Part shown: positions 1,132 through 34,473 of the stretch, piece by piece
Numbering within the stretch: position 1 is the stretch's first letter
How the letters are laid out: every line of letters begins with the position of its first letter
DNA from: a virus
Lineage: Duplodnaviria; Heunggongvirae; Uroviricota; Caudoviricetes
Strand: one strand, 5' to 3'
DNA length: 37,205 nt
Virus record (IMG/VR): IMGVR_UViG_2711768063_000004
Location: 1 to 37,205 of that record
The notes under the pieces: generated by a model
What the model was told of the DNA's origin: nothing
What the model saw: the letters and a program-made list of their open reading frames with translations, nothing else
Database searches by the model: none
Made by a program: the position numbers and the translations under genes

Positions 1132-1503
1132 TCATAAGTACCGATATGATTGCGGGGCCGTTATGTTATCACCTAATGAACTTAGATGAAGTGGTTGGTC
1201 ATAGATTTTTAGATTACCAATTTCTATAGCAAAGGCTTTTTCTTTGCTATGAAAATAAGAGTCAAAAAATTGTTTACTGATACCTGCGTATTGGCTTGTT
1301 TTTTCCCATACAATACTCGGCTTATCTTCTATAACATCTGCAATGTCAAATTCAGCAACAACTTTACCGACAGGCATTGTTGAATAAATAACCACAGATT
1401 TTACATCCGTTTTTTTAAAAATACCTTTCCTGAATTCAAACTTCTTCGTCCCATTAAGGATTTTTTCAACAAATTCAGGTTTTATTGACAATAATACTTT
1501 CAT
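1132..1503 (-). CDS. ASCH (PUA-like) domain protein, accessory
   Basis: 123 aa; N-terminus MKVLLSIKPEFVEKILNGTKKFEFRK is typical of ASCH domains. AT-rich; overlaps the upstream gene by 29 nt; same strand as cI and int. Confidence 0.6.
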   Translation of the reverse strand: MKVLLSIKPEFVEKILNGTKKFEFRKGIFKKTDVKSVVIYSTMPVGKVVAEFDIADVIEDKPSIVWEKTSQYAGISKQFFDSYFHSKEKAFAIEIGNLKIYDQPLHLSSLGDNITAPQSYRYL

Positions 1504-2554
1504 CTACAGCACCAAGTTTAATTATATCGTCAAATTGCTCATCGGTTAATTTAACAACACCCCAACGGTTTTTAGGATTTAAACCAATTTCTTTGATTAG
1601 TTTAGCACGGTTTATTCTTTTAGGTAAAGCTAGATTATATGTAAAACTAATAATGTAAGGGTATCTTTTTGTTTGATAGAATTTTTTTAATTCATTTTCA
1701 GAGAATACACTGTATCGTGTACAATACTGTATGAATTCTTTTTCACTATAAAAAGAATCAATATGTCTAATATCTTCAACTACACATAATGACGTTGCGA
1801 CAGAGCGATAATACGCTCTGTTTTCTTTGTCACTTGTTCTGTAAATAACTAAAATGTCATGTCTTTTTATTTTTTTTACGTCATGCATTCTGCATATATA
1901 TATTTTTCTAATGCTATTCGCATGAGATACATCCGTGATTATATCAGGGGACTCTGTGGTGAGTATCGAATCAGGAAACAGTTTTGTATGGAATTCAGGA
2001 TATATGGATAACAGATATTTGTTTTCATCGTTTCTATTATTTATATACGGATAATCAGACAAAATATCCCCTGTAAGATGATTTTTATTCATCTCTCTTA
2101 CTAAGACTTGTTCACTCCCATTAGCAGTTTGTTTTGTAGCAACATGAATAAAACCATAAATTTTGAATAGTCTAATTAAATAATCATGTTTTTCAAAAAC
2201 AGTCACATAGATATCATCTACTTTTTCTTTTAGTGCATGATCAAAAATCTTTTTGAGGAATCTTTGTCCTCGTAGAGTCCCCTTTGGGTTGAATTTAAAT
2301 GTGCCTATTTTTAGATGTTTAGCACGAGTCAAAGGTGGTATTACGTCGTCAATAATACCACGCTCAATTTTCAAGTATAAAAAACCATCAATTGTGTTGT
2401 CATCATTATATAAGACATAAGCTTTTTCTTCGATAGAATTACATTTTTTATTGAACCAATCGATAAATCCATGTTGATAGTCTTTTTTTAAGGAGTCAAA
2501 AAAAACATCGTTAAAATTAACTTCATTAAACTGAATGTGTTTTAATTTTTCCAT
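1475..2554 (-). CDS. Putative GNAT-like acetyltransferase N-domain fused to an ASCH-like C-domain, accessory
   Basis: 359 aa. N-half shows a GNAT-like pattern (IDGFLYLKIE...KIGTFKF...LRGQRFLKKIFDHA...IYVTVF...YGF). C-half restarts with an ASCH-like motif (KYLLSIYPEFHTKLF...RHDILVIYRT). Domain calls are by eye only. Confidence 0.5.
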   Translation of the reverse strand: MEKLKHIQFNEVNFNDVFFDSLKKDYQHGFIDWFNKKCNSIEEKAYVLYNDDNTIDGFLYLKIERGIIDDVIPPLTRAKHLKIGTFKFNPKGTLRGQRFLKKIFDHALKEKVDDIYVTVFEKHDYLIRLFKIYGFIHVATKQTANGSEQVLVREMNKNHLTGDILSDYPYINNRNDENKYLLSIYPEFHTKLFPDSILTTESPDIITDVSHANSIRKIYICRMHDVKKIKRHDILVIYRTSDKENRAYYRSVATSLCVVEDIRHIDSFYSEKEFIQYCTRYSVFSENELKKFYQTKRYPYIISFTYNLALPKRINRAKLIKEIGLNPKNRWGVVKLTDEQFDDIIKLGAVDESIIVNKT

Positions 2555-3687
2555 TTTTTCACCAGTGCAATAAAGTTGGATAATTTTTGTGGTTTAATAA
2601 AGTGAGCGGCAATGTAAGCTACAATAAATGCAATGGTGCAAATTAGATAAATGTCTTTATGCACACCATCTGTTGGAATAAATTTCATTATGTATGCTAT
2701 GGCTGCAGCATAGAACATATATGTAAATATTTTACTAATTTTTGATTTAGTAGTCTTGAACTTCACTACTACAGAGAAGTCACCTAGCCGTGCGCCATCA
2801 TCCTTTTTAGCTTTCCAGTGGTAAATCATAGGATCGTTCTTACCAAAATTGACATTATTTGAAAAGTATTTTTTCCATGTCTCTGATTCAAGAATACGAC
2901 AACCTTGATAGCTTGAACCTGATGCCGATGCTTCGTCAACCATATCTCGTATAACGAAAAAATGATATTTGCTTGGAGTGCAAGAGGCGCTGGCCAGTGT
3001 GGTTGCGACTTCGTTTGGCAAATTTCTTTGTTCGTTAATTCTGAAATCTATAATATCAGAACGTTCAATATTGCTTTTTAAGAATAAATCTTTGGGATAG
3101 AATGTTTTAACAATTGCTTCAACATCAGATTCATTTAGGTTAATTCTGAATCTGATGTAGTAATTGCAATCATTGCAATTATTGCAATTATTGCAATTAT
3201 TGCAATTAGACAAACAATCCTGCAGATGGAAAAATACATATGTCCCATCATTCCTCTTTCTCAATGTGATTCTTTTGTCGAATGCCCCCCCTTGAAAATC
3301 AAGTTTTGTATTAACTATTAGTTTACCTTTTCGTGTTAAATTTAATAATAAGTGTTTCTCGTTTATTGAGTCTTTATTTATGACGTATTCATTAAAAACC
3401 GCGGTGATCAGTTCTTTGCTGCTATCTAGGTTCGTGCTTAAATCAATGAAGTCATCTTTTTCTTTTACAAACGGTAAAAATAAACAGATTGCACCCTGTT
3501 CTGAAATTTCATTATTTTGGGGGCGAGAAAATGATATGCCAAAATCTAGATGATAGCATTTTTGGGATGTGATATTCCAAAAGTTGATGTGTAGTTCGTT
3601 TATAAAATCTGCTTGAGTCTCATTATAATCCTCTCCTGGGCCTTTAGCGTAGTTTCGACATCCCCAAATAGCAAAACTTCTAGACAT
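2542..3687 (-). CDS. Membrane-anchored hypothetical protein with Cys-x-x repeat, accessory
   Basis: 381 aa; two hydrophobic helices at the C-terminus (IFTYMFYAAAIAYIMKF, IYLICTIAFIVAYIAAHFI); internal CNNCNNCNNCNDCN encoded by a 9-bp tandem repeat; AT-rich; starts 31 bp downstream of the cI stop. Confidence 0.55.
   Translation of the reverse strand: MSRSFAIWGCRNYAKGPGEDYNETQADFINELHINFWNITSQKCYHLDFGISFSRPQNNEISEQGAICLFLPFVKEKDDFIDLSTNLDSSKELITAVFNEYVINKDSINEKHLLLNLTRKGKLIVNTKLDFQGGAFDKRITLRKRNDGTYVFFHLQDCLSNCNNCNNCNNCNDCNYYIRFRINLNESDVEAIVKTFYPKDLFLKSNIERSDIIDFRINEQRNLPNEVATTLASASCTPSKYHFFVIRDMVDEASASGSSYQGCRILESETWKKYFSNNVNFGKNDPMIYHWKAKKDDGARLGDFSVVVKFKTTKSKISKIFTYMFYAAAIAYIMKFIPTDGVHKDIYLICTIAFIVAYIAAHFIKPQKLSNFIALVKKWKN
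3163..3207. repeat. Five tandem copies of 9-bp unit ATTGCAAT(T/C) inside the CDS
   Basis: attgcaatc then attgcaatt x4, read directly. ATTGCAAT is itself an 8-bp palindrome. In-frame (3 codons per unit), encoding a Cys-Asn-Asn repeat on the minus strand. Confidence 0.9.
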
Positions 3688-6585: not shown

Positions 6586-6812
6586 TGGCTGATGCAATGG
6601 ATCTCGTCCAGCAGCGCGTTGAAGAAGAACGCCAACGTCATATCCGTGCTGCCCGTGCCAAAACGCCGGGCATGTCCCGCGTGCTTTGCATTGAGTGTGA
6701 AGCGCCAATTCCGCCAGCACGCCGTCGTGCCATTCCGGGTGTGCAGCTTTGCATTACCTGTCAGGAAATCGCAGAGCTGAAAGGCAAACATTACAACGGA
6801 GGTGCTGTATGA
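6585..6812 (+). CDS. TraR/DksA-family C4 zinc-finger protein
   Basis: 75 aa with CxxC-N17-CxxC (CIECEAPIPPARRRAIPGVQLCITC); positional analogue of P2 orf82. Confidence 0.7.
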   Translation: MADAMDLVQQRVEEERQRHIRAARAKTPGMSRVLCIECEAPIPPARRRAIPGVQLCITCQEIAELKGKHYNGGAV

Positions 6813-7666
6813 GCACCATCCTGAAATGGGCGGGAAATAAAACCGCCATTATGTCCGAACTGAAAAAACACCTTCCTGCTGGCCCGCGACTGGTTGAACC
6901 TTTCGCGGGTTCCTGTGCTGTGATGATGGCGACGGATTACCCCAGCTATCTGGTTGCTGATATTAATCCTGATTTAATCAACCTCTATAAAAAGATTGCC
7001 GCTGATTGTGAATCGTTTATATCTCGTGCCAGAGCTTTATTTGAGGAAGCAAACAGGGAGGTGGCTTATTACAACATAAGGCAGGAGTTTAACTGCTCAA
7101 CTGAAATTACTGACTTCATGAAAGCAGTATATTTCCTGTATCTCAATCGTCACGGTTACCGTGGGTTATGTCGCTATAACAAGAGCGGGCATTTCAACAT
7201 TCCCTACGGTAATTATAAAAATCCGTATTTCCCTGAAAAAGAAATTCGCGTATTTGCAGAGAAAGCCCAGCGAGCAACGTTTATCTGCGCCAGCTTTGAT
7301 GAAACGCTGGCGATGCTGCAGTTGGGGGATGTGGTGTATTGCGATCCGCCTTATGACGGTACGTTTTCCGGCTATCACACTGACGGCTTCACTGAAGATG
7401 ACCAGTATCACCTGGCATCTGTTCTTGAATATCGATCATCAGAAGGTCATCCAGTCATTGTTTCTAACAGTGACACATCCCTGATCCGTTCGCTGTATCG
7501 AAATTTCACTCACCACTACATCAAGGCAAAACGCAGCATCGGCGTGTCGGCTGGCGAGAGTAAATCTGCAACAGAAATCATTGCTGTTTCCGGGGCGCGC
7601 TGCTGGGTGGGATTTGATCCTTCGTGTGGCGTGGATAGTTCTGCTGTGTACGAGGTGCGTGTATGA
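6809..7666 (+). CDS. dam: DNA adenine (N6) methyltransferase, Dam family
   Basis: N-terminus LKWAGNK...LVEPFAGS and catalytic DPPY motif (VYCDPPYDG) match E. coli Dam; start overlaps the upstream stop; GGAGG ribosome-binding site. Confidence 0.8.
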
Positions 7667-10077
7667 GTCATGACGATATGAGCAACTCTAGCGGCTTTAA
7701 CGAGGCCGCTGCAGCATTTTCATGGAACGGCCCGAAAAAGGCCATTAACCCTTATCTGGACCCGGCGGAAGTTGCGCCGGAGTCTGCACTTTCAAACCTG
7801 ATCACTCTGTACGCTGCCGATAATGAGCAGGAACAGCTGCGCCGCGATGCACTGAGTGAGCAGGTCTGGGAGCGTTATTTCTTTAATGAATCTCGTGATC
7901 CTGTCCAGCGCGAAATGGAGCAGGATAAGCTCATTAGCCGGGCAAAGCTGGCGCATGAACAGCAGCGTTTTAACCCGGACATGGTCATTCTGGCGGACGT
8001 CAGCGCCCAGCCCACCCATATTAGCAAGCCGCTGATGCAACGTATCGAATACTTCAGCAGCCTGGGCAGGCCAAAGGCTTATTCCCGCTATTTGCGTGAG
8101 ACGATTAAGCCATGTCTGGAGCGACTGGATTGTGTACGTGACAGTCAGCTGTCTGCTTCTTTCCGTTTTATGGCAAGCCATCAAGGGCTGGAGGGCCTGC
8201 TGATCCTGCCTGAAATGAGTCAGGATCAGGTGAAACGCCTGTCCACCCTGGTAGCTGCGCATATGAGCATGTGCCTTGATGCAGCTTGTGGCGATTTGTA
8301 TGCCACTGATGACGTTAAGCCAGAAGAAATCCGCAAGACATGGGAAAAGGTGGCGGCGGAAACCCTGCGTCTGGATGTCATCCCACCTGCGTTTGAGCAA
8401 CTCCGTCGGAAAAGAAACCGCCGTAAACCCGTGCCCTATGAACTCATTCCGGGTTCGCTGGCGCGTATGTTGTGCGCCGACTGGTGGTATCGGAAATTAT
8501 GGAAAATGCGTTGCGAATGGCGGGAAGAGCAGTTGCGTGCTGTCTGCCTGGTCAGCAAAAAAGCATCTCCCTATGTCAGCTATGAAGCCGTGATGCATAA
8601 ACGTGAGCAGCGCCGTAAGTCGCTGGAGTTTTTCCGTTCTCATGAACTGGTGAACGAAGACGGCGAAACGCTGGACATGGAGGATGTGGTAAACGCCAGC
8701 AGCAGCAACCCTGCGCATCGCCGCAATGAGATGATGGCCTGTGTTAAAGGTCTGGAGCTTATCGCGGAAATGCGCGGTGACTGCGCCGTTTTCTACACTA
8801 TCACCTGTCCGTCACGTTTCCATTCCACGCTCAACAACGGCAGACCCAACCCGACCTGGACAAATGCGACGGTAAGACAAAGCAGCGATTATCTGGTCGG
8901 CATGTTTGCTGCATTTCGTAAGGCAATGCATAAAACCGGGTTGCGCTGGTATGGCGTGCGGGTGGCTGAGCCGCACCATGACGGTACTGTGCACTGGCAT
9001 CTCATGTGCTTCATGCGTAAAAAAGACCGCCGCGCCATCACTGCATTACTGCGTAAGTTTGCCATCCGTGTAGACCGCGAGGAGCTGGGCAACAACACGG
9101 GGCCACGCTTTAAGTCTGAGCTGATTAACCCGCGCAAAGGAACACCGACAAGCTACATCGCGAAATACATCAGTAAGAACATTGACGGGCGTGGTCTGGC
9201 TGGCGAGATCAGCAAGGAAACGGGTAAATCCCTGCGTGATAACGCCGAATACGTTAATGCCTGGGCGTCTCTGCATCGTGTTCAGCAGTTCCGCTTCTTT
9301 GGTATTCCGGGACGTCAGGCTTACCGTGAACTTCGCTTGCTGGCTGGTCAGGCGGCAAGGCAACAGGGTGACAAAAAAGCAGGTGCGCCAATACTGGATG
9401 ACCCGCGCCTTGACGCCATCCTGGCTGCTGCTGATGCTGGTTGTTTTGCCACCTACATCATGAAGCAGGGCGGCGTACTGGTTCCCCGTAAATATCACCT
9501 TATCAGAACCGCTTATGAAATCAACGAAGAGCCGACCGCCTATGGCGATCACGGCATTCGTATTTATGGCATCTGGTCACCCATTGCAGAGGGCAAGATC
9601 TGCACTCATGCAGTGAAGTGGAAAATGGTTCGTAAGGCCGTTGACGTTCAGGAGGCGGTAGCCGACCAGAGCGCTTGCGCCCCTTGGACTCGTGGCAATA
9701 ACTGTCCCCTTGCTGAAAATTTGAACCAACAAGGGAAAGACAAATCAGCTGATGGGGATACTAGGACGGACATTACCCGCATGGATGACAAGGAGTTGCA
9801 CGATTACCTGCACAGTATGAGCAAAAAAGAGCGCCGGGAACTGGCTGCAAGGTTACGCCTGGTGAAACCGAAACGGCGTAAAGACTACAAACAGCGAATT
9901 ACAGACCATCAGCGACAGCAGCTCGTCTATGAACTGAAGTCCAGAGGATTTAATGGCAGCGAGAAAGAGGTCGATTTACTCCTTCGCGGCGGCAGTATTC
10001 CGTCAGGAGCAGGCCTGCGTATCTTCTATCGGAACCAGCGTTTGCAGGAAGATGATAAGTGGCGAAACCTGTATTAA
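7663..10077 (+). CDS. A: Replication initiation endonuclease, P2 gpA family (rolling-circle HUH nickase)
   Basis: 804 aa; HUH-type motif [13 protein letters not shown] and a tyrosine pair in YIAKYISK; last large early gene as in P2/186. Confidence 0.8.
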
Positions 10078-10169: not shown

Positions 10170-10189
10170 TACTGTAAATATAAACAGTG
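10170..10189. promoter_or_regulatory. LexA (SOS) box
   Basis: TACTGTAAATATAAACAGTG matches CTGT-N8-ACAG, about 40 bp upstream of the 10231 start; overlaps a TATACT -10-like hexamer. Confidence 0.7.
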
Positions 10190-10230: not shown

Positions 10231-10419
10231 ATGCAGGACTATTTTTTGGAGTCTTTGAAGCTCCAGCGCATTGATTTTTTTCTTAAGCTTGTAGCGGCTA
10301 GTGAGTGTAGTGATGAAGAGAAGGGGCTGGCTTTGCAGTGGGTTTCTGAACTGACAGATGAACTCATGGCAAAAATCAGAACCCACGAATACAACCGCTC
10401 AATGGATGTCATCAGCTGA
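10231..10419 (+). CDS. Small hypothetical protein, first gene of the SOS-controlled operon (possible Tum-like antirepressor part)
   Basis: 62 aa; AGGAGG ribosome-binding site at 10221..10226; immediately downstream of the LexA box. Confidence 0.5.
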   Translation: MQDYFLESLKLQRIDFFLKLVAASECSDEEKGLALQWVSELTDELMAKIRTHEYNRSMDVIS

Positions 10420-10429
10420 GGTGACCTTT

Positions 10430-10663
10430 ATGCGCATTGAAATAATGATCGATAAAGAGCAGAAGATTAGCCAGTCTACCCTGGACGCCCTTGAATCCGA
10501 GCTTTACCGCAATCTGCGCCCCCTGTATCCCAAAACGGTAATTCGCATCCGCAAAGGTAGCTCTAACGGTGTGGAACTGACCGGACTGCAACTGGACGAA
10601 GAAAGAAAACAAGTGATGAAGATTATGCAGAAGGTGTGGGAAGACGACAGCTGGCTGCATTAA
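10430..10663 (+). CDS. DinI-family protein (186 Tum C-domain-like)
   Basis: 77 aa; MRIEIMIDKEQKIS...LDALESEL...VRIRKGSSNGVEL...VMKIMQKVWEDDSWL follows the DinI pattern as I recall it (MRIE...AL..EL...V...WE..D.W). Confidence 0.7.
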   Translation: MRIEIMIDKEQKISQSTLDALESELYRNLRPLYPKTVIRIRKGSSNGVELTGLQLDEERKQVMKIMQKVWEDDSWLH

Positions 10664-10822
10664 GAAAAGTTGCTGGCGTCTGAACTTGGTTCTGGCGTCA
10701 GCAAGGTTGAACAACGAGTACAGTGAGGCGTTAGGTGTGGCGTTTATTTGATGAGTGAACGCCCGTTCTGCGACAGGTTCGGAGATTAAGGTTGAAACTA
10801 CGGGCAAAATACCATCTTTTTC

Positions 10823-11248
10823 CTACTTAATTGAGTCCAGTAACAAGTTACAGTTACTCTCATTGTAGAGAGAACGAGCAATTAGTGTTACCTGCTTTCC
10901 ATTCATTCCCGGCTTATCCCATAACACAGCTTCTTGCGACGCCACAAATTCAGCATAATCAATTATGCGTTGTTCGTGATCTGGTTCCTCATAGCCAAAG
11001 TATGAGAGCGCATCGTTGTAAGCGTGGTAAGCTGCTTTCTGTAATATCTTGATATCGGCTGTAGGTACTTGCTCCGTGTAGCTAGGATCTAATTGTGTGC
11101 TACTGCCATAGAATGCACATGAAAGGTAAGATATTGATTTCTGTTGAGCTTTAGTTCCTTTCTCATAGTTTTTAGCTGTTACCGCCTGAACTGGGACGCT
11201 AACAAAGCTTGCAACCAGAATTAAAATTAATACGTAAAAGCTTTTCAT
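10823..11248 (-). CDS. Secreted/periplasmic hypothetical protein (moron at the tin/old position)
   Basis: 141 aa with an N-terminal signal peptide (MKSFYVLILILVASFVSVPVQA then VTA); alone on the minus strand between the Tum/DinI module and the cos-like site; AT-rich. Confidence 0.55.
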   Translation of the reverse strand: MKSFYVLILILVASFVSVPVQAVTAKNYEKGTKAQQKSISYLSCAFYGSSTQLDPSYTEQVPTADIKILQKAAYHAYNDALSYFGYEEPDHEQRIIDYAEFVASQEAVLWDKPGMNGKQVTLIARSLYNESNCNLLLDSIK

Positions 11249-11522
11249 TTTGACCTCAGCCGAAACGTTAGAGAGACTATCGAAATTTGTAAAACCCGTG
11301 GCGATTCAGTTTGAGATCCTCCCCCTTACATGATTTTTAATCAAATATATGCTTTTGTAAGCATACCTGTTAACCGAATTATTCATTTTTAGAGATCTTC
11401 CTACATACTGATTATGCCCGCTGAGGAGTTCACCTTGCGTAAAGTCCGATTCGCTTTACTCGTCTGTGCATGTCTATGCTGCATGAGATTGCATGATCGT
11501 TTGAGGATCGTTTTTGCTAAGG

Positions 11523-11546
11523 CCCGCCAGAACTGGCGGGCTTTTG
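11523..11546 (+). terminator. Rho-independent terminator-like hairpin
   Basis: Perfect 9-bp stem gcccgccag / ctggcgggc with loop aa, followed by TTTT. Confidence 0.55.
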
Positions 11547-11589
11547 CGTTGATCATGCACCTGCATGAAAACCACTACATAAAGCGGGC

Positions 11590-11608
11590 AGGCGTGGCGG
11601 GGATACGA
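11590..11608. other. Candidate cos (cohesive end) site
   Basis: ggcgtggcggggatacgag: the first 13 nt match the GGCG(T/A)GGCGGGGA start of the 19-nt cohesive ends I recall for 186/P2. Position (after the early region, before Q) fits. Recalled from memory, not verified. Confidence 0.4.
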
Positions 11609-11723
11609 GCGCGCGTAAACCAAGTAGTATGTATCATCTAACTTTTACGAACAAGGTGTCCAAAATCTACGATAAATAGGTTAGACTTGTAGTACTTACA
11701 GTAATAATGCAAAAGGAAATAGC

Positions 11724-12419
11724 ATGAATCAGGTTCATGAGTCACATCAAATTAATCTTTTCACAACCAATGAAGAAATATCGCCTAGTCCTGCTATAAT
11801 TTTTCCAGTTCTACAGGAGTTAAGCGGATTTAGCCTCATCCCAACATTTGGACAGGAAGTAAATGCTTTATCTGGTGAGATGAAACAGATATTGATTATG
11901 ACAAATCCAGAGCAAACTTATCGTATTGAATTTGCAAGCCATGCAATCGTTATAAATGCTATGTCTACAAATCATGATGAATTTGTTGAGAAATCTGTAA
12001 ATGTTATCAGTGCAATGTTAAAGATATTTCCCAATAAGAAATTTAATAGAATTGCATTATTAAATGCACAGATTTTTACTGCTTCTTTGGATAAATATCA
12101 ACAGTTGTATGATAAATTATTCACATACAATGAAGTTTCTCCTTTTGAGTGGGATAACAGAATTGCGCTTCGTAAAAATATTGAATTTAATAATGAGGCA
12201 ATAAATAGCATCAATGCTATCAGTCGCAAAGAAGTTGCTGTTATGAATCATAATTCAGGCAAGCCATTTGATGCGATAATGTTTGAAATCGACTCTAATA
12301 CGTTGCCAACAAATACCGATTATAGATTTGATTTTAATCAGGCGATTCAAGTGTTGCGTAATTTGAATGATAATAACAGAAATTCACTGAGTGTACTGCG
12401 TCGTTATATTGAGTTATAG
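11724..12419 (+). CDS. Hypothetical protein, gene 1 of cos-proximal accessory cassette
   Basis: 231 aa, AT-rich, no recognisable motif or P-loop; AAGGAAA ribosome-binding site. Confidence 0.6.
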   Translation: MNQVHESHQINLFTTNEEISPSPAIIFPVLQELSGFSLIPTFGQEVNALSGEMKQILIMTNPEQTYRIEFASHAIVINAMSTNHDEFVEKSVNVISAMLKIFPNKKFNRIALLNAQIFTASLDKYQQLYDKLFTYNEVSPFEWDNRIALRKNIEFNNEAINSINAISRKEVAVMNHNSGKPFDAIMFEIDSNTLPTNTDYRFDFNQAIQVLRNLNDNNRNSLSVLRRYIEL

Positions 12420-12427
12420 GAACTATT

Positions 12428-13075
12428 ATGGCAGGTTATAGCGATTATATATTTAATATAGCGGCAAAGGTTATCAGCAATGCTGTGCCTATTAATGAGT
12501 TTAATGTAATAACTAATCGTTTTTTTAACAATCTCCATGATGAATTTAAAACGTCGCGTTTTCATGTGCATGATTCAGCCTCAAGTAATATGATTGCTGA
12601 GTCTGGTAACGTTGGAAGGATTAATTCACAAAGTAGTGAGATAGCCTTCGATATACAAGTGCAGCGTTGTTTAAAAAACGCGTTGCTATATCTTAAGTCT
12701 GAAAACTATATTGAAGGCGAGATAACTAAAACTCAAATTTATCTTGAATCTTTGTCTGAAAAAAACAAGTCATTATTTTTAGAAGTCTTTCAACGTGTCT
12801 GGGTTTCAATCTATTACTCACCAGAGTATCTTCGAAATTTTTTATACATAGCCGCATCTATGGACTATGAATTGATGAAGGATCGCGCAGATGTCCTTAT
12901 ATTAGGATGTTCTGCACATGAAGATGTTTTAGTTCAGGAGGCAGCTATTAGGGCTTTCGAATCTTGGGAAAATCCAGAGCATGCTTCACATTTGCGTGCA
13001 ATGAGAAAGTTTAATGAAAAATGGATTGAAGATTATAGACAAAGTACTATAAATTTTTTGGAGAGTCTAAAATGA
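12428..13075 (+). CDS. Hypothetical protein, gene 2 of cos-proximal accessory cassette
   Basis: 215 aa, starts 8 bp after gene 1; no recognisable motif. Confidence 0.6.
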   Translation: MAGYSDYIFNIAAKVISNAVPINEFNVITNRFFNNLHDEFKTSRFHVHDSASSNMIAESGNVGRINSQSSEIAFDIQVQRCLKNALLYLKSENYIEGEITKTQIYLESLSEKNKSLFLEVFQRVWVSIYYSPEYLRNFLYIAASMDYELMKDRADVLILGCSAHEDVLVQEAAIRAFESWENPEHASHLRAMRKFNEKWIEDYRQSTINFLESLK

Positions 13076-13587
13076 CATTCCTATTAAGGAAGTTTTCATA
13101 CCCAAAATGGGAGAAAAACAAAGGATTATCTCCAGATGAGTTTTCAGCTGATTCAATTACTGGCTGTACGCGCACAACTGCGAATAAGCTTTCAGTTTGG
13201 AGATCAGAAACCACTGATTTTAAATCTGATTATGTAGAAAAACTTATTGTTGCTTTAGCTACGACGATGCCGTCACCTGCTACTATAGACCTTGTTTGGT
13301 TGAAAGAAGAATGGTTTTTTGAACATGGAATTACATTGGAAGATAATCCAGGTGATACTAAATATGAAAGTGTGAATAATCTTCATAGCGACATTGCAAA
13401 TCTAAATCATAGGCGTCTAGCTATGGTAGGTTCACATATGCTTGAACAATTAGAGGGGGCAGGTAATTATCTCAGGGTTAGTAAAAGAGAACTGATTTCA
13501 CTTGTGGTTAAGTGGATGGAAAAAGAAGGTGAGTTTACTATAGAGGATTTGGAGGAAAAATGGCAGGAACAGTTGAATAAATTATAA
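13072..13587 (+). CDS. Hypothetical protein, gene 3 of cos-proximal accessory cassette
   Basis: 171 aa; ATGA start/stop overlap with gene 2 suggests translational coupling; no recognisable motif. Confidence 0.6.
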   Translation: MTFLLRKFSYPKWEKNKGLSPDEFSADSITGCTRTTANKLSVWRSETTDFKSDYVEKLIVALATTMPSPATIDLVWLKEEWFFEHGITLEDNPGDTKYESVNNLHSDIANLNHRRLAMVGSHMLEQLEGAGNYLRVSKRELISLVVKWMEKEGEFTIEDLEEKWQEQLNKL

Positions 13588-13617
13588 ATTATTCAACCTA
13601 TTGCGCTAGCCGATTAA

Positions 13618-13652
13618 CCCCATTTAAGTATATCAAATGGGGTATTATGTTT
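13618..13652 (+). terminator. Rho-independent terminator after the accessory cassette (possibly bidirectional with Q)
   Basis: 8-bp stem ccccattt / aaatgggg with a 9-nt loop, followed by T-rich tattatgttt; lies between the cassette stop and the Q stop. Confidence 0.5.
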
Positions 13653-13666
13653 CCTATATTTGTATT

Positions 13667-14701
13667 CTATGGTGTTAATTCATAGCTTCTAAAATTAATT
13701 ACTTCTTTAGCACACCATTTGTTTAGCTCTTTCATTTGTTCTTGTAAAGGAAGTAGTTCGTTTCTAACAAAAACCTTACTCGCCTTCTCCACATCCCCAA
13801 ACCCCCCAACATTATTCGGCATGATCCCCATCATCTGCGGCGGCACGCGGTGTGCCGCCATCATGTCATCGCGACTAACATTTTTGATATTCAAAAACTC
13901 ATCCTTCGCCGCGACTTCTGACAGAGGAATAATCTGAAGGCCGTCTTTTTTGCCGTTAGGCGAGTACATAAACAGGTTGCGGAAGTTGCCAGGGCCTTTG
14001 GCGCTTTTCATCGCATTGCGGAGGTTGTTCACATCCTCCTGGTTCTGCGCGGCATCGGTCATGTACATGATGAAGCCTGCATGGCTGCCGTTAATGTAAT
14101 ACTTCCGGCGGAACAGCGTGGCGGACTCGTTGAGCAGGGCTGACGGAATGGCAGAAAGATAACCTGGTAGGCCGTAGATCTCCTGGTTGATGTCAGGTTC
14201 CATCAGATGAAAAATGCTGCCTTTCGTGAACTGATACGGCTGGGTTGTCATACCGTATTGCACAAACCAGTAGGTATCCAGGTCTAACCCGCGTCGGGTG
14301 TATTTTGCCAGAGCAGGCTCAAGGGCGATAACTTCACCGAAGCGGTTCGTGCGTTTCTCCAGGTAGGCGTTACCAAATACCAGATAGTCCTGCACAAAAC
14401 GTGAAAAAGCCTGCTGGCTGAGCAGCGGGTGAGGGATGTAGGTACTGGTCAGAATGTTGCATTTCACCGCAATTGGTGAGCTGTGATGCACGGCGGCGCG
14501 GAAGGTTCGTGCCAGTCCGTCAAAGCTGACGGGCGGCTCATACCAGCGATCCATCTGTACGCATTCCACATAGTCCAGCAGTTCACGGCGGTCCAGAACA
14601 GGAACGGGATCGCCAAAGCTGAATGCTTCGGCTGAAGTTTGGCTTTTATGCTTGAGCTGATTCGTCGCCGCAGCGCGGTTTTTCTTACTCTTTCCCATCA
14701 A
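13667..14701 (-). CDS. Q: Portal protein (P2 gpQ family)
   Basis: 344 aa, the P2 gpQ length as I recall it; precedes the large terminase on the same strand. Confidence 0.8.
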   Translation of the reverse strand: MMGKSKKNRAAATNQLKHKSQTSAEAFSFGDPVPVLDRRELLDYVECVQMDRWYEPPVSFDGLARTFRAAVHHSSPIAVKCNILTSTYIPHPLLSQQAFSRFVQDYLVFGNAYLEKRTNRFGEVIALEPALAKYTRRGLDLDTYWFVQYGMTTQPYQFTKGSIFHLMEPDINQEIYGLPGYLSAIPSALLNESATLFRRKYYINGSHAGFIMYMTDAAQNQEDVNNLRNAMKSAKGPGNFRNLFMYSPNGKKDGLQIIPLSEVAAKDEFLNIKNVSRDDMMAAHRVPPQMMGIMPNNVGGFGDVEKASKVFVRNELLPLQEQMKELNKWCAKEVINFRSYELTP

Positions 14702-16464
14702 AAAATCTCCACAATATTGCTGGTATTGGCGGACTCGCCCTGCAGCGGTTCATTAAACAGTGCGTGCATTGTTGCCCAGGCCAGATCGGCGTGGCTGGCT
14801 TCTTCGCTGCGGCTGGCTTCATAGGTCGGGCGGTTGCCGCTGGCAGTGGTGGCGCGACGGATTGCCATAAAGGACTGCGCTATGTCGGTGTGCCCTGCGT
14901 CAAACTCCAGGCGGCGGTGGCTAATAATGTCGTAGGCCTTGAGTACCAGGGCGTTTTTAACGTTGGGGTTGTAGACAAACTCCCGGACGGCAGGAAAAAA
15001 CGCTTTCACGTTCTCGTAAACCCCGTGACCGACGCCGGTTGAGTCGATACCGATGTATGTCACGTTGTACTGTTCGGTCAGTTTTTTGATGGCGTCAGCC
15101 TGGGCGCGGAAGTCCATCCCGCGCCACTGGTGACGTTCAAGAATGCGAAACTTACCGCCTGGCACGGCTGGCGGTGCCACCACCACGCATCCGGCGCTGT
15201 CGCCGTTCTGCGTACCTTTTGCCGGGTCATAACCGATCCACACTTCGCGCCAGCCAAACGGGCGCAGGGCCAGTGCATGAAAGTCGCTCCAGACTTCCCA
15301 ACTGTCCACCATGCACGCCTGCAGCTCGCTGAGCGGGAACACGGACGCGAGATCGTCCACAAACTCGCACATCAGCAGGTTCTGGTATTCGTCCGGGCTG
15401 TACTCCATGCGCAACTGATCGAGGTCGAAAAGGTTACATCCGCCGCGCACTGCATCTTCCACGGTGACTATCTGGCGGTATTGCCCGTCTGCGCACAGCA
15501 GGCCGGGGGCCAGATTGCTGTGGGACAGGTCGATGTCCACCTTATCGGCTTTGTTGCGCCCACGGTTGAACAGCGCACCAGACCAGAACGGATAAGCACT
15601 GTGTGTCAGGCTGGATGGCGTGGAAAAATAGGTTTGTCGCCATTTTTTGTGAATAGCCATACCGGAAGCCACTTTGCGCAGCTCCTGGAATTTCGGTATC
15701 CAGAAATATTCATCCAGATACAGGTTGCCGTGATAACTCTGGGCAGTGCGGGCATTGGTGCCGAGGAAGTAAAGCGTGGCCCCGTTAGGAAGCACCATCG
15801 GATCGCCTTTCAGCTCCACCTCGACTTCTTTGGCGAAGTCGATGATGTATTGCTTAAAGACGTGAGCCTGTGCCTTACTGGCAGAAAGGAAAATCTGGTT
15901 ACGTCCGGTAAGCAGGGCGTCAATCAGGGCTTCACGGGCAAAGTAAAAGGTCGCGCCGATCTGGCGTGACTTCAGCAGATTACGGATGCGGTTGGTTTTT
16001 CCAGCTTCCCACCAGTGGCGCTGGTAGTTGAACATGGAGGAATGGAAGATTTCTTCCAGCTTCTCAATCTGTTCATCGGTGAAAACATTCTTTTCCGGCT
16101 GACGGCGCGGCCCTTTGTTGCGGTTGGCGACGTTAGGGTTTAAGTCGGCTTCGTTGCCGCCATTGTTAAACTTGCCGATCCGCGCGTGGCGCTCCGACTG
16201 GCGTGCCAGCAGGTCAATTTCTTTGAAATCTTTCCCTTCTTTGTGCTCCTTCATAATGAGCTGGCAATAGCGTGCGGCGGTGGTGAGCTGCATCTGATCC
16301 AGCGGCCCATAGTCACCCCACTTGTCGCGTTTTTTCCAGCTGTGAACGGTTGCAACTTTCTCGCCCAGCATTTCAGCAATGCGGGCTACGCGGTATCCCT
16401 GAAAGTACAGCAGCATGGCCTGCCGACGGGGATCGAGATCTGCGGGTGTCAGTGTGGTGTTCAT
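14698..16464 (-). CDS. P: Terminase large (ATPase) subunit (P2 gpP family)
   Basis: 588 aa; overlaps the Q start; divergent from O as in P2. Confidence 0.8.
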   Translation of the reverse strand: MNTTLTPADLDPRRQAMLLYFQGYRVARIAEMLGEKVATVHSWKKRDKWGDYGPLDQMQLTTAARYCQLIMKEHKEGKDFKEIDLLARQSERHARIGKFNNGGNEADLNPNVANRNKGPRRQPEKNVFTDEQIEKLEEIFHSSMFNYQRHWWEAGKTNRIRNLLKSRQIGATFYFAREALIDALLTGRNQIFLSASKAQAHVFKQYIIDFAKEVEVELKGDPMVLPNGATLYFLGTNARTAQSYHGNLYLDEYFWIPKFQELRKVASGMAIHKKWRQTYFSTPSSLTHSAYPFWSGALFNRGRNKADKVDIDLSHSNLAPGLLCADGQYRQIVTVEDAVRGGCNLFDLDQLRMEYSPDEYQNLLMCEFVDDLASVFPLSELQACMVDSWEVWSDFHALALRPFGWREVWIGYDPAKGTQNGDSAGCVVVAPPAVPGGKFRILERHQWRGMDFRAQADAIKKLTEQYNVTYIGIDSTGVGHGVYENVKAFFPAVREFVYNPNVKNALVLKAYDIISHRRLEFDAGHTDIAQSFMAIRRATTASGNRPTYEASRSEEASHADLAWATMHALFNEPLQGESANTSNIVEIF

Positions 16465-18518: not shown

Positions 18519-19169
18519 ATGAGCCTGAGTCCCGCACGGCAGCATCGCCTGCGCGTTCAGGCTGAACAGGCCGCCCGCGAGGGCGGCAGTGTTCGCCACG
18601 CATCGGGCTATGACCTGATGCTGCTGCAACTGGCGGAAGACCGCCGCCGTCTCAAGGGCGTTCAGTCCACGGTCAAAAAAGCGGAAATCAAGGTGGAGCT
18701 GCTGCCGAAGTACGCCGCCTGGGCAGAGGGTGTCCTGGCTGCCGGAGGCGCTCAACAGGATGACGTGCTGATGTACGTGATGCTGTGGCGCATTGATGCC
18801 GGATATTATGCCGGGGCGCTGGAGATCGGGCGTCATGCCCTGCGTCATGGCTGGGTGATGCCGCTGGGTAACCGCAACGTGCAGACCGTGCTGGCAGAGG
18901 AAATGGCAGACGCCGCGCAGAGCGCAATGCTTGCCGCCACCGGCTTTGATGCCGATCTGTTGTTGCAGACGCTGGAGCTGACAGACGGTCTGGATATGCC
19001 GGACCAGTCACGGGCGCGTCTGCATAAAGCGATTGGCGCTGTCCTGAGTGAAAGCAATCCGGCTTCCGCCCTTAATCATCTCAACCATGCGTTACAGCTT
19101 GATCCCCGCTGTGGCGTGAAAAAAGACAAACAGCAGCTGGAGCGCAGACTGCGCAATGACAGCCGCTGA
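18519..19169 (+). CDS. M: Terminase small/endonuclease subunit (P2 gpM family)
   Basis: 216 aa; position after N. Confidence 0.7.
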   Translation: MSLSPARQHRLRVQAEQAAREGGSVRHASGYDLMLLQLAEDRRRLKGVQSTVKKAEIKVELLPKYAAWAEGVLAAGGAQQDDVLMYVMLWRIDAGYYAGALEIGRHALRHGWVMPLGNRNVQTVLAEEMADAAQSAMLAATGFDADLLLQTLELTDGLDMPDQSRARLHKAIGAVLSESNPASALNHLNHALQLDPRCGVKKDKQQLERRLRNDSR

Positions 19170-24312: not shown

Positions 24313-24910
24313 TCTGCTGCCACCGGGTTCAACACCACTGGAGCGCCGACTGGCGCAAACCTGCAGCGGGATTTCTGATCTGCAGGTGCCGCTTCGTGAC
24401 TTGTGGAATCCGGCAACCTGTCCGGTCAGTTTCCTGCCTTATCTCGCCTGGGCGTTCTCTGTGGATCGCTGGGACGAGGGCTGGACAGAAAGCGTCAAGC
24501 GCCAGGTGGTGAAGGATGCTTTTTATATTCATCAGCATAAAGGGACCACCAGTGCCGTGCGGCGGGTGGTGGAGCCGTTCGGCTTTCTGATCCGCATTAT
24601 TGAGTGGTGGCAAACCGGAGAGGCACCGGGCACGTTTCGCCTGGATATCGGCGTGCAGGACCAGGGCATCACTGAAGATACCTATCTGGAACTTGAGCGA
24701 CTGATAAGCGATGCCAAACCATGTAGCCGCCACATGATCGGCATGTCCATCAATCTGCAGACCAGCGGCCCGCATTGGGTGGGAGCCGCCAGCTATCTTG
24801 GCGAAGAAATCACGATCTATCCGTATATCAACGAAACGATTATTTCCGGTGGCACCGCGCATGAAGGCGGGGCGGTCCATGTTATTGACACAATGAGAGT
24901 GAATCCATGA
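24305..24910 (+). CDS. I: Baseplate protein (P2 gpI family)
   Basis: 201 aa; synteny J-I-H. Confidence 0.7.
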   Translation: MNSLLPPGSTPLERRLAQTCSGISDLQVPLRDLWNPATCPVSFLPYLAWAFSVDRWDEGWTESVKRQVVKDAFYIHQHKGTTSAVRRVVEPFGFLIRIIEWWQTGEAPGTFRLDIGVQDQGITEDTYLELERLISDAKPCSRHMIGMSINLQTSGPHWVGAASYLGEEITIYPYINETIISGGTAHEGGAVHVIDTMRVNP

Positions 24911-26637
24911 GCACAAAATTTTATACCCTGCTGACGGATATTGGCGCGGCGAAACTTGCCAGCGCCGCCGCGCTCGGTGTGCCGCTAAAAATTACCCATA
25001 TGGCGGTGGGCGATGGCGGCGGAGCATTGCCGACGCCGGACGCAAAGCAGACGGCATTGGTAAATGAGAAACGCCGGGCTGCGCTGAATATGCTCTATAT
25101 CGACCCGCAGAACAGCAGCCAGATTATTGCTGAACAGGTGATCCCTGAAAACGAGGGCGGTTGGTGGATACGTGAAGTGGGCCTGTTTGATGAGTCAGGG
25201 GCATTGATTGCCGTGGGGAACTGCCCGGAAAGCTATAAACCGCAACTGGCTGAAGGCAGCGGGCGTACCCAGACCGTGCGCATGGTGCTGATTACCAGCA
25301 GCACGGACAATATCACCCTGAAAATCGACCCTGCTGTCGTGCTGGCAACCCGTCATTATGTAGATCAACAAATAGAGATTCATGAGCAATCGCGCCGCCA
25401 TCCTTCTGCGTCTTTGACAGAAAAGGGATTTGTACGTCTGTATAGCGGTGTGGAAAGCAATGATGAAACAGTCGCTGCAACGCCAAAAGCAGTGAAAATA
25501 GCGATGGATAATGCCAGCGCCAGACTGGCAAAAGACCGCAATGGTTCTGATATTCCCAATCCGGCACTGTTTGTTCAGAATCTGGGATTGAAAACGACTG
25601 TTGATAAAGCTGCATCAGCGATTCAGCCAGGAGATTATGGAATTGGCCTGGCTTATCTGAAAACCATGGGAACCAAATCGCAATTTTTTGCTTATGGTAC
25701 AGCTGTCGGCTATCCAGAAGTGCCAACACATGGTGCTGGTTTCCAGGCCTGTTACAACGACAATCGACGTGCACAAATTTATGTCGCTAATGATGGCAAG
25801 ATGTACTGTCGATTCAGCATGTTATCGAAAATTGCCGATGATGAAACACCGTGGAATCAGGTGTTCACCAGTGCACATTATCCAGAAGCATCAGTGAGTG
25901 TTAAAGGAATGGTGCAACTGGGGAACGATGTAAACAGCGTGTCAGAAAATGTTGCGGCGACATTGAAAGCGGTAAAAATTGCGATGGACAACGCCAGCGC
26001 GAGACTGGCAAAGGACCGCAATGGTGCTGATATTCCTGACCCGACTTTGTTTATTCAGAATCTGGGACTTAAACCGACGGTTGATAAGGCTGAAAGTGCT
26101 CTACAACAGGGAGCATACGGAATCGGTAGCAATAATAACTACGAAATGGGTGAGGTTTCACAGTTTCTTGCATATTCAGGTAATGCAGATGAAGTACCAT
26201 CGAATGGTGCAGGTTTTCAGGCTGCGTATAACAAGAACAGACGCGCGCAGATTTTCATCACCGGAGCAGGGGAAATGTATCACCGTTTCAGCGGCTCTGA
26301 TACGGTTAAAGACAATACAACACTATGGCGTCGGGGTGTTTGTGAAGATGAATTTTCATTTGGCAGCAATTATCACCGAATAACTGGCGGTGTGCTGAAG
26401 CAGTTTTTTAACAGTTATTTTTCCGGGGCAACGGGTGTGGTGAATAAAGAGTATCAGGTGAATTTTCCGACACCATTTGCCCGTCAGTGCTGGTACGTGA
26501 TCCCCGTTTTCCGTTCGTCACACGGTGGGAGTGTTGAGGGTGTCGCCATTACAGCTATTACTGCAACTGGCTTTACTCTGAGCATCACCGGAGATAACGG
26601 TGGATGGAATATTGGGTTTATTGCGGAGGGGGTCTGA
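24907..26637 (+). CDS. H: Tail fiber protein (P2 gpH family) with internally duplicated distal module
   Basis: 576 aa; N-terminal region matches P2 gpH as recalled (MS.KF.T..T..GAAKLA...MAVGDGGG...SYKP.LAEGSGR); two diverged copies of a ~115-130 aa module beginning AATPKAVKIAMDNASARLAKDRNG. Confidence 0.8.
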   Translation: MSTKFYTLLTDIGAAKLASAAALGVPLKITHMAVGDGGGALPTPDAKQTALVNEKRRAALNMLYIDPQNSSQIIAEQVIPENEGGWWIREVGLFDESGALIAVGNCPESYKPQLAEGSGRTQTVRMVLITSSTDNITLKIDPAVVLATRHYVDQQIEIHEQSRRHPSASLTEKGFVRLYSGVESNDETVAATPKAVKIAMDNASARLAKDRNGSDIPNPALFVQNLGLKTTVDKAASAIQPGDYGIGLAYLKTMGTKSQFFAYGTAVGYPEVPTHGAGFQACYNDNRRAQIYVANDGKMYCRFSMLSKIADDETPWNQVFTSAHYPEASVSVKGMVQLGNDVNSVSENVAATLKAVKIAMDNASARLAKDRNGADIPDPTLFIQNLGLKPTVDKAESALQQGAYGIGSNNNYEMGEVSQFLAYSGNADEVPSNGAGFQAAYNKNRRAQIFITGAGEMYHRFSGSDTVKDNTTLWRRGVCEDEFSFGSNYHRITGGVLKQFFNSYFSGATGVVNKEYQVNFPTPFARQCWYVIPVFRSSHGGSVEGVAITAITATGFTLSITGDNGGWNIGFIAEGV

Positions 26638-32462: not shown

Positions 32463-32944
32463 TGATGGTGCTGGGATTGTACGTGTTTATGCTGCGCACC
32501 GTGCCGTATCAGGAACTGCAGTATCAACGCAGCTGGCGACATGCGGCTAACAGCCGGGTAAATCGTCGTCCGTCCACGCAGTTTCTGGGACCGGATAACG
32601 ACATGCTGACGCTTTCTGGCGTTCTTATGCCGGAGATAACAGGCGGCAGGCTGTCGTTGCTGGCACTTGAGCAGATGGCAGAACAGGGGAAAGCATGGCC
32701 TCTGATTGAAGGCAGCGGCACGATTTACGGCATGTATGTGATTGAGGGACTGAATCAGACTAAAACGGAGTTTTTCCGCGACGGTATGCCGCGCCGGATT
32801 GAGTTCACCCTGTCGCTCAAACGGGTGGATGAATCCCTGTCCGATATGTTCGGTGATCTCAGTGCGCAGCTGAATAATCTGCAGGGAACGGCAACATCTG
32901 CCTTAAGCGATATCAGTAAAACGGTGGGAGGGCTTCTGTCGTGA
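32459..32944 (+). CDS. U: Tail protein (P2 gpU family)
   Basis: 161 aa; start overlaps the T stop. Confidence 0.7.
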   Translation: MMMVLGLYVFMLRTVPYQELQYQRSWRHAANSRVNRRPSTQFLGPDNDMLTLSGVLMPEITGGRLSLLALEQMAEQGKAWPLIEGSGTIYGMYVIEGLNQTKTEFFRDGMPRRIEFTLSLKRVDESLSDMFGDLSAQLNNLQGTATSALSDISKTVGGLLS

Positions 32945-34041
32945 ATTTCAGCTCTGAACTGCTTAACAAAGGCAACAAAACTCCCGCATTCAGCATCAGT
33001 ATTGAAGGCAGGGATATCACCACTGTGTTGGACAACCGCCTGATGGGGCTGACGCTGACGGATAACCGGGGATTTGAAGCGGACCAGTTTGATCTGGAGC
33101 TGGACGACACCGATGGAAAAATCGTGCTGCCGCGCCGTGGTGCGGTCATTACGCTGGCGCTGGGCTGGAAGGGGCAGCCGCTTTTCCCGAAAGGGGCATT
33201 CACGGTGGACGAGATTGAACACACTGGCGCACCGGACCGCCTGACTATTCGGGCGCGAAGTGCTGATTTTCGTGAAACGCTGAATACCCGCCGTGAAAAG
33301 TCGTGGCACAAGACCACCGTCGGGGAAGTGGTGAAGGAAATAGCCGCGCGGCACAAGCTGAAGATGGCACTGGGTAAAGACCTGTCGGATAAGCCCGTGG
33401 TACATATAGACCAGACCAATGAGAGTGACGGCAGTTTTCTGATGCGGCTGGCGCGCCAGTACGGTGCTATTGCGTCGGTGAAAAATGGCAATCTGTTATT
33501 CGTCCGGCAGGGACAGGGCAAAAGCGCCAGCGGTAAACCTCTGCCGGTGATCACTATCACACGCAAGGACGGCGACAGTCACCGCTTTACCCTGGCAGAT
33601 CGCGGAGCCTATACGGGCGTAATTGCTAGCTGGTTGCATACCCGCGAACCCGCGAAGAAAGAAAGCACCACGGTGAAGCGTAAGCGCAGGACCGCAAAGC
33701 AGAAGAAAGAGCCGGAAGCGAAGCAGGGCGATTACCTGGTGGGTACGGATGAAAACGTGCTGGTACTTAATCGCACTTATGCCAACCGGAGCAACGCTGA
33801 ACGGGCAGCGAAAATGCAGTGGGAACGCCTGCAACGCGGCGTTGCGTCATTCTCGCTACAACTGGCGGAAGGTCGGGCAGATCTCTACACGGAAATGCCA
33901 GTGAAAGTCAGTGGCTTTAAACAGCCGATAGATGATGCGGAATGGACCATTACGACTCTGACACATACCGTCAGCCCGGATAACGGTTTTACGACCAGTC
34001 TGGAGCTTGAAGTGAGGATTGATGATTTCGAAATGGAATGA
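32941..34041 (+). CDS. D: Tail protein / late control gene D product (P2 gpD family)
   Basis: 366 aa; last gene of the tail operon, immediately before ogr as in P2. Confidence 0.7.
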   Translation: MNFSSELLNKGNKTPAFSISIEGRDITTVLDNRLMGLTLTDNRGFEADQFDLELDDTDGKIVLPRRGAVITLALGWKGQPLFPKGAFTVDEIEHTGAPDRLTIRARSADFRETLNTRREKSWHKTTVGEVVKEIAARHKLKMALGKDLSDKPVVHIDQTNESDGSFLMRLARQYGAIASVKNGNLLFVRQGQGKSASGKPLPVITITRKDGDSHRFTLADRGAYTGVIASWLHTREPAKKESTTVKRKRRTAKQKKEPEAKQGDYLVGTDENVLVLNRTYANRSNAERAAKMQWERLQRGVASFSLQLAEGRADLYTEMPVKVSGFKQPIDDAEWTITTLTHTVSPDNGFTTSLELEVRIDDFEME

Positions 34042-34350: not shown

Positions 34351-34436
34351 CGCTGCCGCCATTTTGTCGCCATCGATAAAAAACAGTGTTTCTAACATCA
34401 TGATTTTAAAAGGCATAAATTTCAGGCAACAAAAAA

Positions 34437-34473
34437 CCCATCAACCTTGAACCGAAATGGCGGGGTTGATGGG
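34437..34473 (-). terminator. Rho-independent terminator-like hairpin, probably for host ybjL
   Basis: 10-bp arms cccatcaacc / ggttgatggg on the plus strand, preceded by AAAAAA (a T-run after the hairpin on the minus strand); about 110 bp downstream of the ybjL stop. Confidence 0.45.

Follow-up and report, generated by a model that had tools for sequence, protein, structure and literature searches.

Phages 186 and P2 have 19-nt 5' cohesive ends, and a 55-bp core is common to P2 and P4 (Ziermann & Calendar 1990, as cited in PMC3931495 and PMC9594776). Closer to the sequence considered here are two phages with reported cos sites. E. coli HS was induced with mitomycin C by Zünd et al. (2021), who mapped its prophage cos by read-start analysis and PhageTerm (PMC8008629), and the cos of HS phage 1 is given as 5'-GGCGTGGCGGGGATACGAG-3' at nt 926016–926034 (PMC8008629, Suppl. 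Table 4). The genome announcement of SEN8 states the identical cos sequence (PMC5427200). The position between cos and the portal gene was named an insertion hotspot by Dodd & Egan (1996, as cited in PMC5694545), and the cos-proximal region between gpA and gpQ was described as a hotspot of anti-phage systems by Rousset et al. 2022 (PMC9122126). On the early side of cos, phage 186 carries a LexA-controlled promoter, p95, which drives tum (PMC7708051); in the 186 annotation the p95 transcript ends partly at t95a and finally at t95b, the latter lying between the accessory gene orf97 and cos.

The sequence analysed here (IMGVR_UViG_2711768063_000004, 37,205 nt, hereafter the window) contains most of a P2/186-family (Peduoviridae) prophage. 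Its nt 11466–11618 very probably represent the functional cos of an apparently complete Fels-2/186-like E. coli prophage inserted at the 3' end of rybB, with an internal hairpin that is most likely a terminator, and with the block serving as an anchor for two cargo slots. As the best explanation of the data, this reading draws on sequence identity, position, conservation, modularity and the published end mapping on the same 19-mer. Features are listed in Table 1.

Table 1. Features of the prophage and of the region around cos (positions in the window)
Feature	Position (nt)	Strand	Remarks
Dam methylase gene	6749–7666
Replication gene A (GPA)	7663–10077
LexA box CTGTAAATATAAACAG	10172–10187	+	Perfect; precedes the orf62/DinI-like pair
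orf62	10231–10419	+	62 codons; in the 10231–10663 operon
DinI-like gene	10430–10663	+	DinI Pfam match
Variable slot 1, right-end side of cos	10735–11465		141-aa ORF and promoter-like site
141-aa ORF of slot 1	10823–11248	-	PHROG 7437, function not assigned
Promoter-like site for 141-aa ORF	11373–11344
Conserved cos block	11466–11618		Similarity to relatives begins and ends at these borders
Three direct TGCATG boxes	11467–11472, 11480–11485, 11490–11495	+	Putative cosB-like recognition region
Hairpin GCCCGCCAG-AA-CTGGCGGGC plus TTTT	11522–11545	+	Putative intrinsic terminator for rightward transcripts
Two more TGCATG boxes	11554–11559 (inverted), 11562–11567 (direct)		Adjoin the AAAACC...AAAGCGGGCA core
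19-nt cohesive end GGCGTGGCGGGGATACGAG (predicted)	11591–11609	+	Identical to SEN8 cos and to mapped HS phage 1 cos
Variable slot 2, left-end side of cos	11619–13666	+	Three-gene cassette
Cassette gene 1 (231 aa)	11724–12419	+	PHROG 19817
Cassette gene 2 (215 aa)	12428–13075	+	PHROG 21208
Cassette gene 3 (171 aa)	13072–13587	+	PHROG 10743
Portal gene, gpQ-like	13667–14701	-	Pfam
Terminase large subunit gene, gpP-like	14698–16464	-	Pfam
Terminase small subunit gene, gpM-like	18519–19169	+	Pfam
gpD gene	32941–34041		In capsid/tail region
Host sRNA gene rybB	34428–34506	-	Rfam, 105 bits
Permease gene, probably ybjL	34586–36271		561 aa

The cohesive-end site and its prophage

The left part of the window carries, in order, an integrase gene (truncated at the left border of the window), two minus-strand genes and a 186-type CI repressor gene, and the integrase, CI repressor, GPA and GPD domains are all present. 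The two minus-strand genes (nt 1475–3687, 359 and 381 aa) overlap each other, and the integrase-CI interval in which they lie is another reported cargo position in P2-like prophages (PMC13586616). At the other end, the window has its single copy of the 14-bp att core reported for E. coli HS phage 1 (AACAAAAAACCCAT), located at nt 34428–34441, which is the 3' end of rybB, and by sequence it evidently marks the right end of the prophage (attR). Since the window begins within the integrase gene, a search for direct repeats that might represent att sites was negative. An imperfect 239-nt direct repeat of another kind (nt 25408–25646 and 25888–26126, 71% identity, spacing 480) lies inside a 576-codon ORF of the tail region (nt 24907–26637) and points to an internal duplication.

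The first-pass annotation had noted a match to the start of the 186/P2 cohesive end at nt 11590. The match is real, but the position was one base too low, the true start being nt 11591. The 13-mer GGCGTGGCGGGGA has a single mismatch-free match in the whole window (nt 11591–11603). The database record of phage 186 begins with GGCGTGGCGGGGAAAGCAT and that of P2 with GGCGAGGCGGGGAAAGCAC; on alignment, the 19-mer of the window agrees with the annotated 186 cohesive end at 15 of 19 positions (bases 1–13 being the same) and with that of P2 at 14 of 19, and the flanks are similar as well. To the left of the cut, similarity continues from ...catgcacctgcatgaaaaccactacataaagcgggca in the window to ...catgcaactgcattaaaaccgacccataaagtgggca in 186 (record ends joined), and to the right of the 19-mer the window has CGCGCG (nt 11610–11615) where 186 has TGCGCGC, so that the overhang and its right flank read GGCG...GAG/cgcgcg in the window and GGCG...CAT/tgcgcgc in 186. 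The site has the 19-nt G-rich cohesive end starting GGCG(A/T)GGCGGGG that typifies a P2/186-type cos, a conserved core on either side of the overhang, and the corresponding position between the early/replication region and a divergent portal-terminase operon, with both terminase genes present.

The site also agrees with those of SEN8 and HS phage 1. The first bases of the SEN8 record are the identical 19-mer, annotated there as a putative cos, and its last base corresponds to nt 11590 of the window. The cos block of HS phage 1 shows 93.4% identity to nt 11468–11618 of the window, and its portal/terminase DNA is likewise 93.4% identical. With the 19-mer, the cos block and the att core all shared, the window holds a close relative of a prophage with mapped ends. 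A set of 120 distinct cos regions of the family was collected by scanning IMG/VR with the cos core, and the 19-mer of the window was the commonest cos type among them (36/120). The comparison supports assignment of the site as a P2/186-family cos, the end mapping coming from a relative with a 93% identical block, and the earlier suggestion that the site is cos is borne out by the identity of its 19-mer to the annotated SEN8 and mapped HS phage 1 sites. By analogy with the 186 annotation, the predicted staggered nicks precede G11591 on the top strand and follow G11609 on the bottom strand.

The cos block (150 bp) is made up of the right arm (about 125 bp), the 19-mer and the CGCGCG, and has the replication/SOS genes on one side and the portal and terminase genes on the other. 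A similarity search found this block of about 150 bp in about 100 Peduoviridae phage records, at 77–96% identity and with unrelated sequence on either side; these include Fels-2, RE-2010 and many Klebsiella, Escherichia and Yersinia phages. Many of the best matches in E. coli genomes end at about nt 11615–11625.

It is highly improbable that the site is an inactive relic, left in a defective prophage as a cos-like sequence no longer subject to cutting or packaging. It is true that the window begins within the integrase gene and that attL is outside view, but such a relic would sit poorly with the conservation of the block in phage records (83–96%), with its 93% identity to the block of an inducible prophage that is cut at the same 19-mer, and with the full-length Pfam domain matches of the portal and both terminase genes, to which the GPA, GPD and CI domains can be added. 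Furthermore, another complete genome, that of E. coli EC21Z-137, carries a prophage 99.8% identical over nt 10600–13700.

Within the right arm, TGCATG boxes are the most conspicuous element. The whole window has 19 copies of the hexamer, far fewer than the 46 ± 7 that shuffled sequences predict, and 5 of the 19 copies lie inside the cos block, within 101 bp of cos. Such window-wide depletion would fit avoidance of stray recognition sites. Across the 120 cos regions, GCAT recurs in a fixed register from the cut, at -123, -110 and -100 in 67–85% of regions and at -28 in 119/120, and ATGC occurs at -36 in 85/120. The columns of TGCATGAAAACC...AAAGCGGGCA to the left of the overhang and of CGCGCG to the right are highly conserved, and the only conserved stretch to the right of the overhang is (C/T)GCGCG(C), which would place the recognition region almost entirely to the right-end side of the cut. 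From their conserved positions, the TGCATG boxes probably constitute the terminase recognition (cosB-like) region.

The block also contains three GATC (Dam) sites (nt 11495–11498, 11506–11509 and 11551–11554), two of which belong to a short direct repeat conserved in the lineage (GATCGTTT...GATCGTTT); the phage has its own Dam-type methylase gene (Table 1). On the minus strand, the cos core beside the cut (nt 11572–11587) forms a short, weak inverted repeat (5 bp) followed by TTTT, and a consensus terminator scan of the region listed only this weak minus-strand hairpin (nt 11587–11572). The corresponding inverted repeat (-19 to 0 in related loci) is stronger in P2 and 186 (CCGCCCGCTTCACGGGGCGG and TTTTAATG). 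It could halt leftward transcripts as a back-up, or could simply arise from the cos sequence itself.

A 75-codon ORF (nt 11414–11641) runs across both hairpin and cos, and if it were a real gene the conservation of the block would be due to coding. Some Klebsiella phages have similar short ORFs spanning cos, entered in their records as hypothetical proteins. This explanation is scarcely credible, as the ORF has no Pfam match, its equivalent in E. coli CFSAN064035 (L136) is a PGAP pseudogene with an internal stop, and the equivalents in L135, L137 and E. coli HS are unannotated. In addition, the ends of virion DNA would split it, and the conserved block begins at nt 11466, within the ORF and not at its start. 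On the Pfam and pseudogene evidence it was rejected as a gene.

A terminator-like hairpin inside the packaging signal

In the spacer separating the two groups of TGCATG boxes lies a perfect 9-bp inverted repeat, formed by G11522–G11530 (GCCCGCCAG), AA, and C11533–C11541 (CTGGCGGGC), and followed by TTTT (nt 11542–11545) and GCGTT. The first-pass annotation had placed a perfect 9-bp-stem terminator about 45 bp upstream of the site; the stem is as described and ends 49 nt before the cut, and its role as a terminator is plausible but a prediction. A 56-nt RNA around the hairpin has a folding energy of -26.8 kcal/mol (z = -4.4), none of 200 shuffled sequences folding as well, and its stem, of 8 bp extended by 3 further pairs, runs into UUUU GCGUU. 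The element has a GC-rich stem-loop directly before a U-tract, albeit a short one (4 T), and is situated downstream of a transcription unit on the same strand (LexA box, orf62 and DinI-like gene). A simple consensus terminator scan did not call it as a terminator. Searches against Rfam gave RybB only for the whole window at the gathering threshold, and only chance-level matches for nt 10600–11800 at E-values up to 5, with no RNA family over cos.

The prevalence of the hairpin was surveyed in the 57 distinct regions carrying this cos type, defined as [ACGT]TACGA[GT]. A terminator-like hairpin is present in the -85 to -40 interval, at -72 to -47, on the plus strand in 38 of these and on the minus strand in none. 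In four others a canonical terminator immediately precedes the block, and in all four the internal hairpin is absent or degenerate, an exclusivity with a Fisher p-value of 0.01 if kinship is ignored. The remaining 15 have no terminator by the criteria used, often through a single mismatch or a TTTC tract. Three T columns 3' of the stem are at least 90% conserved in the lineage, and in other lineages ENT90, L116 and L096 have different stem sequences at the same place followed by 6–8 T, L096 doing so without CCAG/CTGG.

A role at the DNA level offers an alternative, in which the hairpin is mainly a cos element, i.e. a palindromic recognition or architectural site in the box spacer (bound, for example, by the small terminase subunit or a host DNA-bending protein), with its likeness to a terminator secondary. 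This is a tentative reading, somewhat doubtful as the principal function but compatible with termination. The palindromic core gcCAG..CTGGCG.G occurs in fixed register at -65 to -50 across the 120 regions, perfect stems of at least 6 bp are found at -82 to -40 in 46/120 regions against 3/120 in shuffled sequences, and 51 hairpins are centred exactly at -59.5. The distance from boxes to cut is also conserved family-wide. The core CCAGnnCTGGCG is conserved throughout the family, and since this includes 186, where the T-run is lacking, it points to a DNA-level function; 186 and many relatives keep CGCCAGnnCTGGCG without a T-run. Against such a function as the main one, the palindrome is absent in P2 itself and in many P2-type relatives, and so is not required by every terminase of the family. 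Moreover, the T-run is conserved in the lineage and on one strand only, the three phages with other stems (ENT90, L116, L096) retain the combination of hairpin and T-run, and the hairpin is degenerate in exactly the four members of the lineage that have a terminator upstream of the block.

Covariation in the hairpin is weak. Among 48 hairpin variants of this cos type, 89% of cells pair and 3 cells change on both sides, slid controls giving similar values, so that structural proof is not claimed; within the lineage the hairpin sequence is conserved and does not covary. Wobble-type changes favoured the plus strand in 5 variants versus 3 by an eye count. Given this weak covariation, and the retention of CCAGnnCTGG in relatives without a T-run, a DNA-level role stays a live rival to the preferred reading of the hairpin as a terminator.

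Transcription toward the hairpin would probably come from the LexA box, which by analogy with 186 appears to be a source of SOS-induced transcription toward cos. The DinI-like protein is 41% identical (E = 3e-24) to the C-terminal half of 186 Tum, and orf62 shows no similarity to 186 Tum, N-terminal half included. By the same analogy, the LexA box, the orf62/DinI-like pair and the 186-type CI gene together suggest an SOS induction module of the 186 type. The layout is that of p95, LexA box and tum in 186, except that the final terminator-like element of the window is inside the cos block. It is plausible that the hairpin is the terminator of this SOS-inducible tum/DinI-like operon, comparable to t95b of 186. 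In two relatives with an empty slot 1 (L135 and L011), the hairpin follows the DinI-like stop by about 130 nt. In the window a minus-strand gene sits between the SOS operon and the cos hairpin, so read-through would have about 860 nt to cross first, and because this gene intervenes an SOS-terminator role is what we infer here. The only hairpin in the conserved stretch past the DinI-like stop is without a U-tract. It is long (TTGCTGGCGTC...GGCGTCAGCAA, nt 10667–10709), begins just past the stop codon, and may be the counterpart of the partial terminator t95a of 186.

From these features a sequence of events can be proposed. After excision and replication, the large and small terminase subunits would recognise the right arm through the five TGCATG boxes in fixed register and the AAAACC...AAAGCGGGCA core, and would nick either side of the 19-mer to leave 19-nt 5' cohesive ends. 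The left end of virion DNA would then start at base 11591, with the three-gene cassette as its first genes. The hairpin and T-tract would stop rightward transcripts, both those of the LexA-controlled orf62/DinI-like operon and those of any plus-strand cargo in slot 1, and so would block read-through over the cut into the left-end cargo and, in antisense, into the portal-terminase operon. The cos block would at the same time act as a conserved anchor between two independently exchanged cargo slots. Box function, termination at the hairpin and the insulating role are the deduced parts of this scheme. A more elaborate version makes the hairpin dual-purpose, with CCAGnnCTGG serving terminase recognition or cos architecture, and the GC stem and T-run of the Fels-2-type lineage insulating the SOS-driven slot from the left-end slot; the cos block would then be both a packaging signal and a recombination anchor for two defence slots, and the cassette could be an undescribed anti-phage system. 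Taken as a whole, this version is speculative and rather unlikely.

Cargo on either side of cos

Pairwise comparison shows conserved sequence up to nt 10734, followed by slot 1, the cos block, slot 2 (nt 11619 to about 13700) and the portal gene. Sharp borders of similarity, with differing genes at the same place in close relatives, mark both slots as parts of an insertion hotspot. Slot 1 is empty in L135 and L011. E. coli GPEC709 (L135) combines the empty slot 1 with the same cassette as the window, and E. coli CFSAN064035 (L136) has the same slot 1 as the window with different cargo in slot 2. On this sequence evidence the two slots flanking cos evidently assort independently. Cargo in relatives includes a SEFIR-domain protein, an ATPase with an RloB protein, an RNA-directed DNA polymerase (reverse transcriptase), a Cas2-like protein and a Hypoth_Ymh-domain protein. 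The 141-aa ORF of slot 1 in the window has a hydrophobic N-terminus resembling a signal peptide (MKSFYVLILILVASFVSVPVQA), and its product is WP_000834899, a recurrent entry ('hypothetical') in Table S5 of Rousset et al. 2022.

Between cos and the portal gene the first-pass annotation had noted three ORFs, which are indeed present, with the portal gene next on the minus strand. It had further proposed that, if the site is cos, the cassette is an insertion at the extreme left end of the packaged genome, in a place where P2 has only about 130 bp between cos and Q. The latter figure is too low, as P2 has 167 bp from the cohesive end to the Q stop (positions 20–186). The location between cos and portal stands, and would put the cassette at the extreme left end of packaged DNA, but its rarity was over-rated, cargo there being normal in the lineage. 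Among IMG/VR loci, most P2-type phages have about 182 bp between cos and the portal stop, and members of the Fels-2-type lineage mostly have 0.5–3.5 kb, so that left-end cargo is the rule in the latter. In P4, cargo begins directly after the same CGCGCG(C).

The cassette itself has no match to a described defence protein family. Searches gave no Pfam and no PADLOC matches and only sub-threshold NCBIfam matches, and the PHROG families of all three genes (Table 1) are function-unassigned. Homologues of gene 1 form only 21 clusters, each named hypothetical, and the confident AlphaFold model of its product (pLDDT 88) gave only loose PDB matches to TBP-like or AdoMetDC-like folds (TM 0.25–0.4), so no function is drawn from the model. 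The three genes travel as a unit at about 40% identity (loci L138–L144), the relatives being found in cos-portal loci of other E. coli P2-like prophages and, between replication and head genes, in lambdoid Klebsiella prophages. The cassette does not appear among the systems in the accessible part of Table S2 of Rousset et al. 2022, nor do its N-terminal sequences or WP accessions in the accessible part of the supplements. The 'hp+hp+hp' system, which those authors validated, was considered as an equivalent and rejected, as it lies on the other side of cos and on the other strand, and has larger proteins. The cassette is a candidate accessory or defence module.

Relation to known phages and hotspots

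The finding is correct but ordinary, and already known in kind, since a cos with the same sequence has been mapped and published, and earlier work described the hotspot. Modest additions are the division by cos of the A-to-Q hotspot into two independently exchanged slots, the terminator-like hairpin with a family-wide palindromic core within a packaging signal, and the cassette as an uncharacterised mobile three-gene unit. With cos located, the ends of the packaged genome and the order of its genes are fixed. Its position places accessory genes at both extreme ends of virion DNA, beside the only sequence in common with P4-type satellites, which helps to explain the swapping of cargo between phages and satellites. 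In practice, it is of use for annotating these prophages and cloning their cargo.

The closest systems are HS phage 1, SEN8 and Fels-2, with the Felsduovirus-type cos. Their 19-mer is identical to that of the window, their right arms, with TGCATG boxes and hairpin, are 90–93% identical, and cos likewise lies between the DinI-like and portal genes, with cargo between cos and portal; HS phage 1 also shares the att core at rybB. The difference is confined to the cargo, which is a 463-aa hypothetical protein in HS phage 1, a hypothetical protein and an HNH endonuclease in SEN8, a 565-aa protein in Fels-2 and the three-gene cassette in the window.

Phages 186 and P2 share with the window the start of the cohesive end, a core of TGCAT-AAAACC...AAGCGGGC to the left of the overhang and (T/C)GCGCGC to its right, TGCAT boxes at equal distances, and a cos flanked by the early genes on one side and the portal/terminase genes Q/P (W in 186) on the other. 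In 186, however, overhang positions 14, 16, 17 and 19 differ, and the palindrome core is present without the T-run, whereas P2 lacks the central palindrome altogether; both have about 170–180 bp, with no gene, between cos and the portal gene. The terminator t95b of 186 resembles the hairpin of the window in facing rightward and in lying between a LexA-controlled tum/DinI-like operon and cos, but it is about 160–190 nt before the cut and outside the boxes, whereas the hairpin of the window is 49–69 nt before the cut and inside the cos block. As in the hotspot of P2-like phages and P4, the gpA-gpQ content next to cos varies and cargo starts right after CGCGCG(C); Rousset et al. 2022 treated the region from A to Q as one, whereas in the window cos divides it into two slots.
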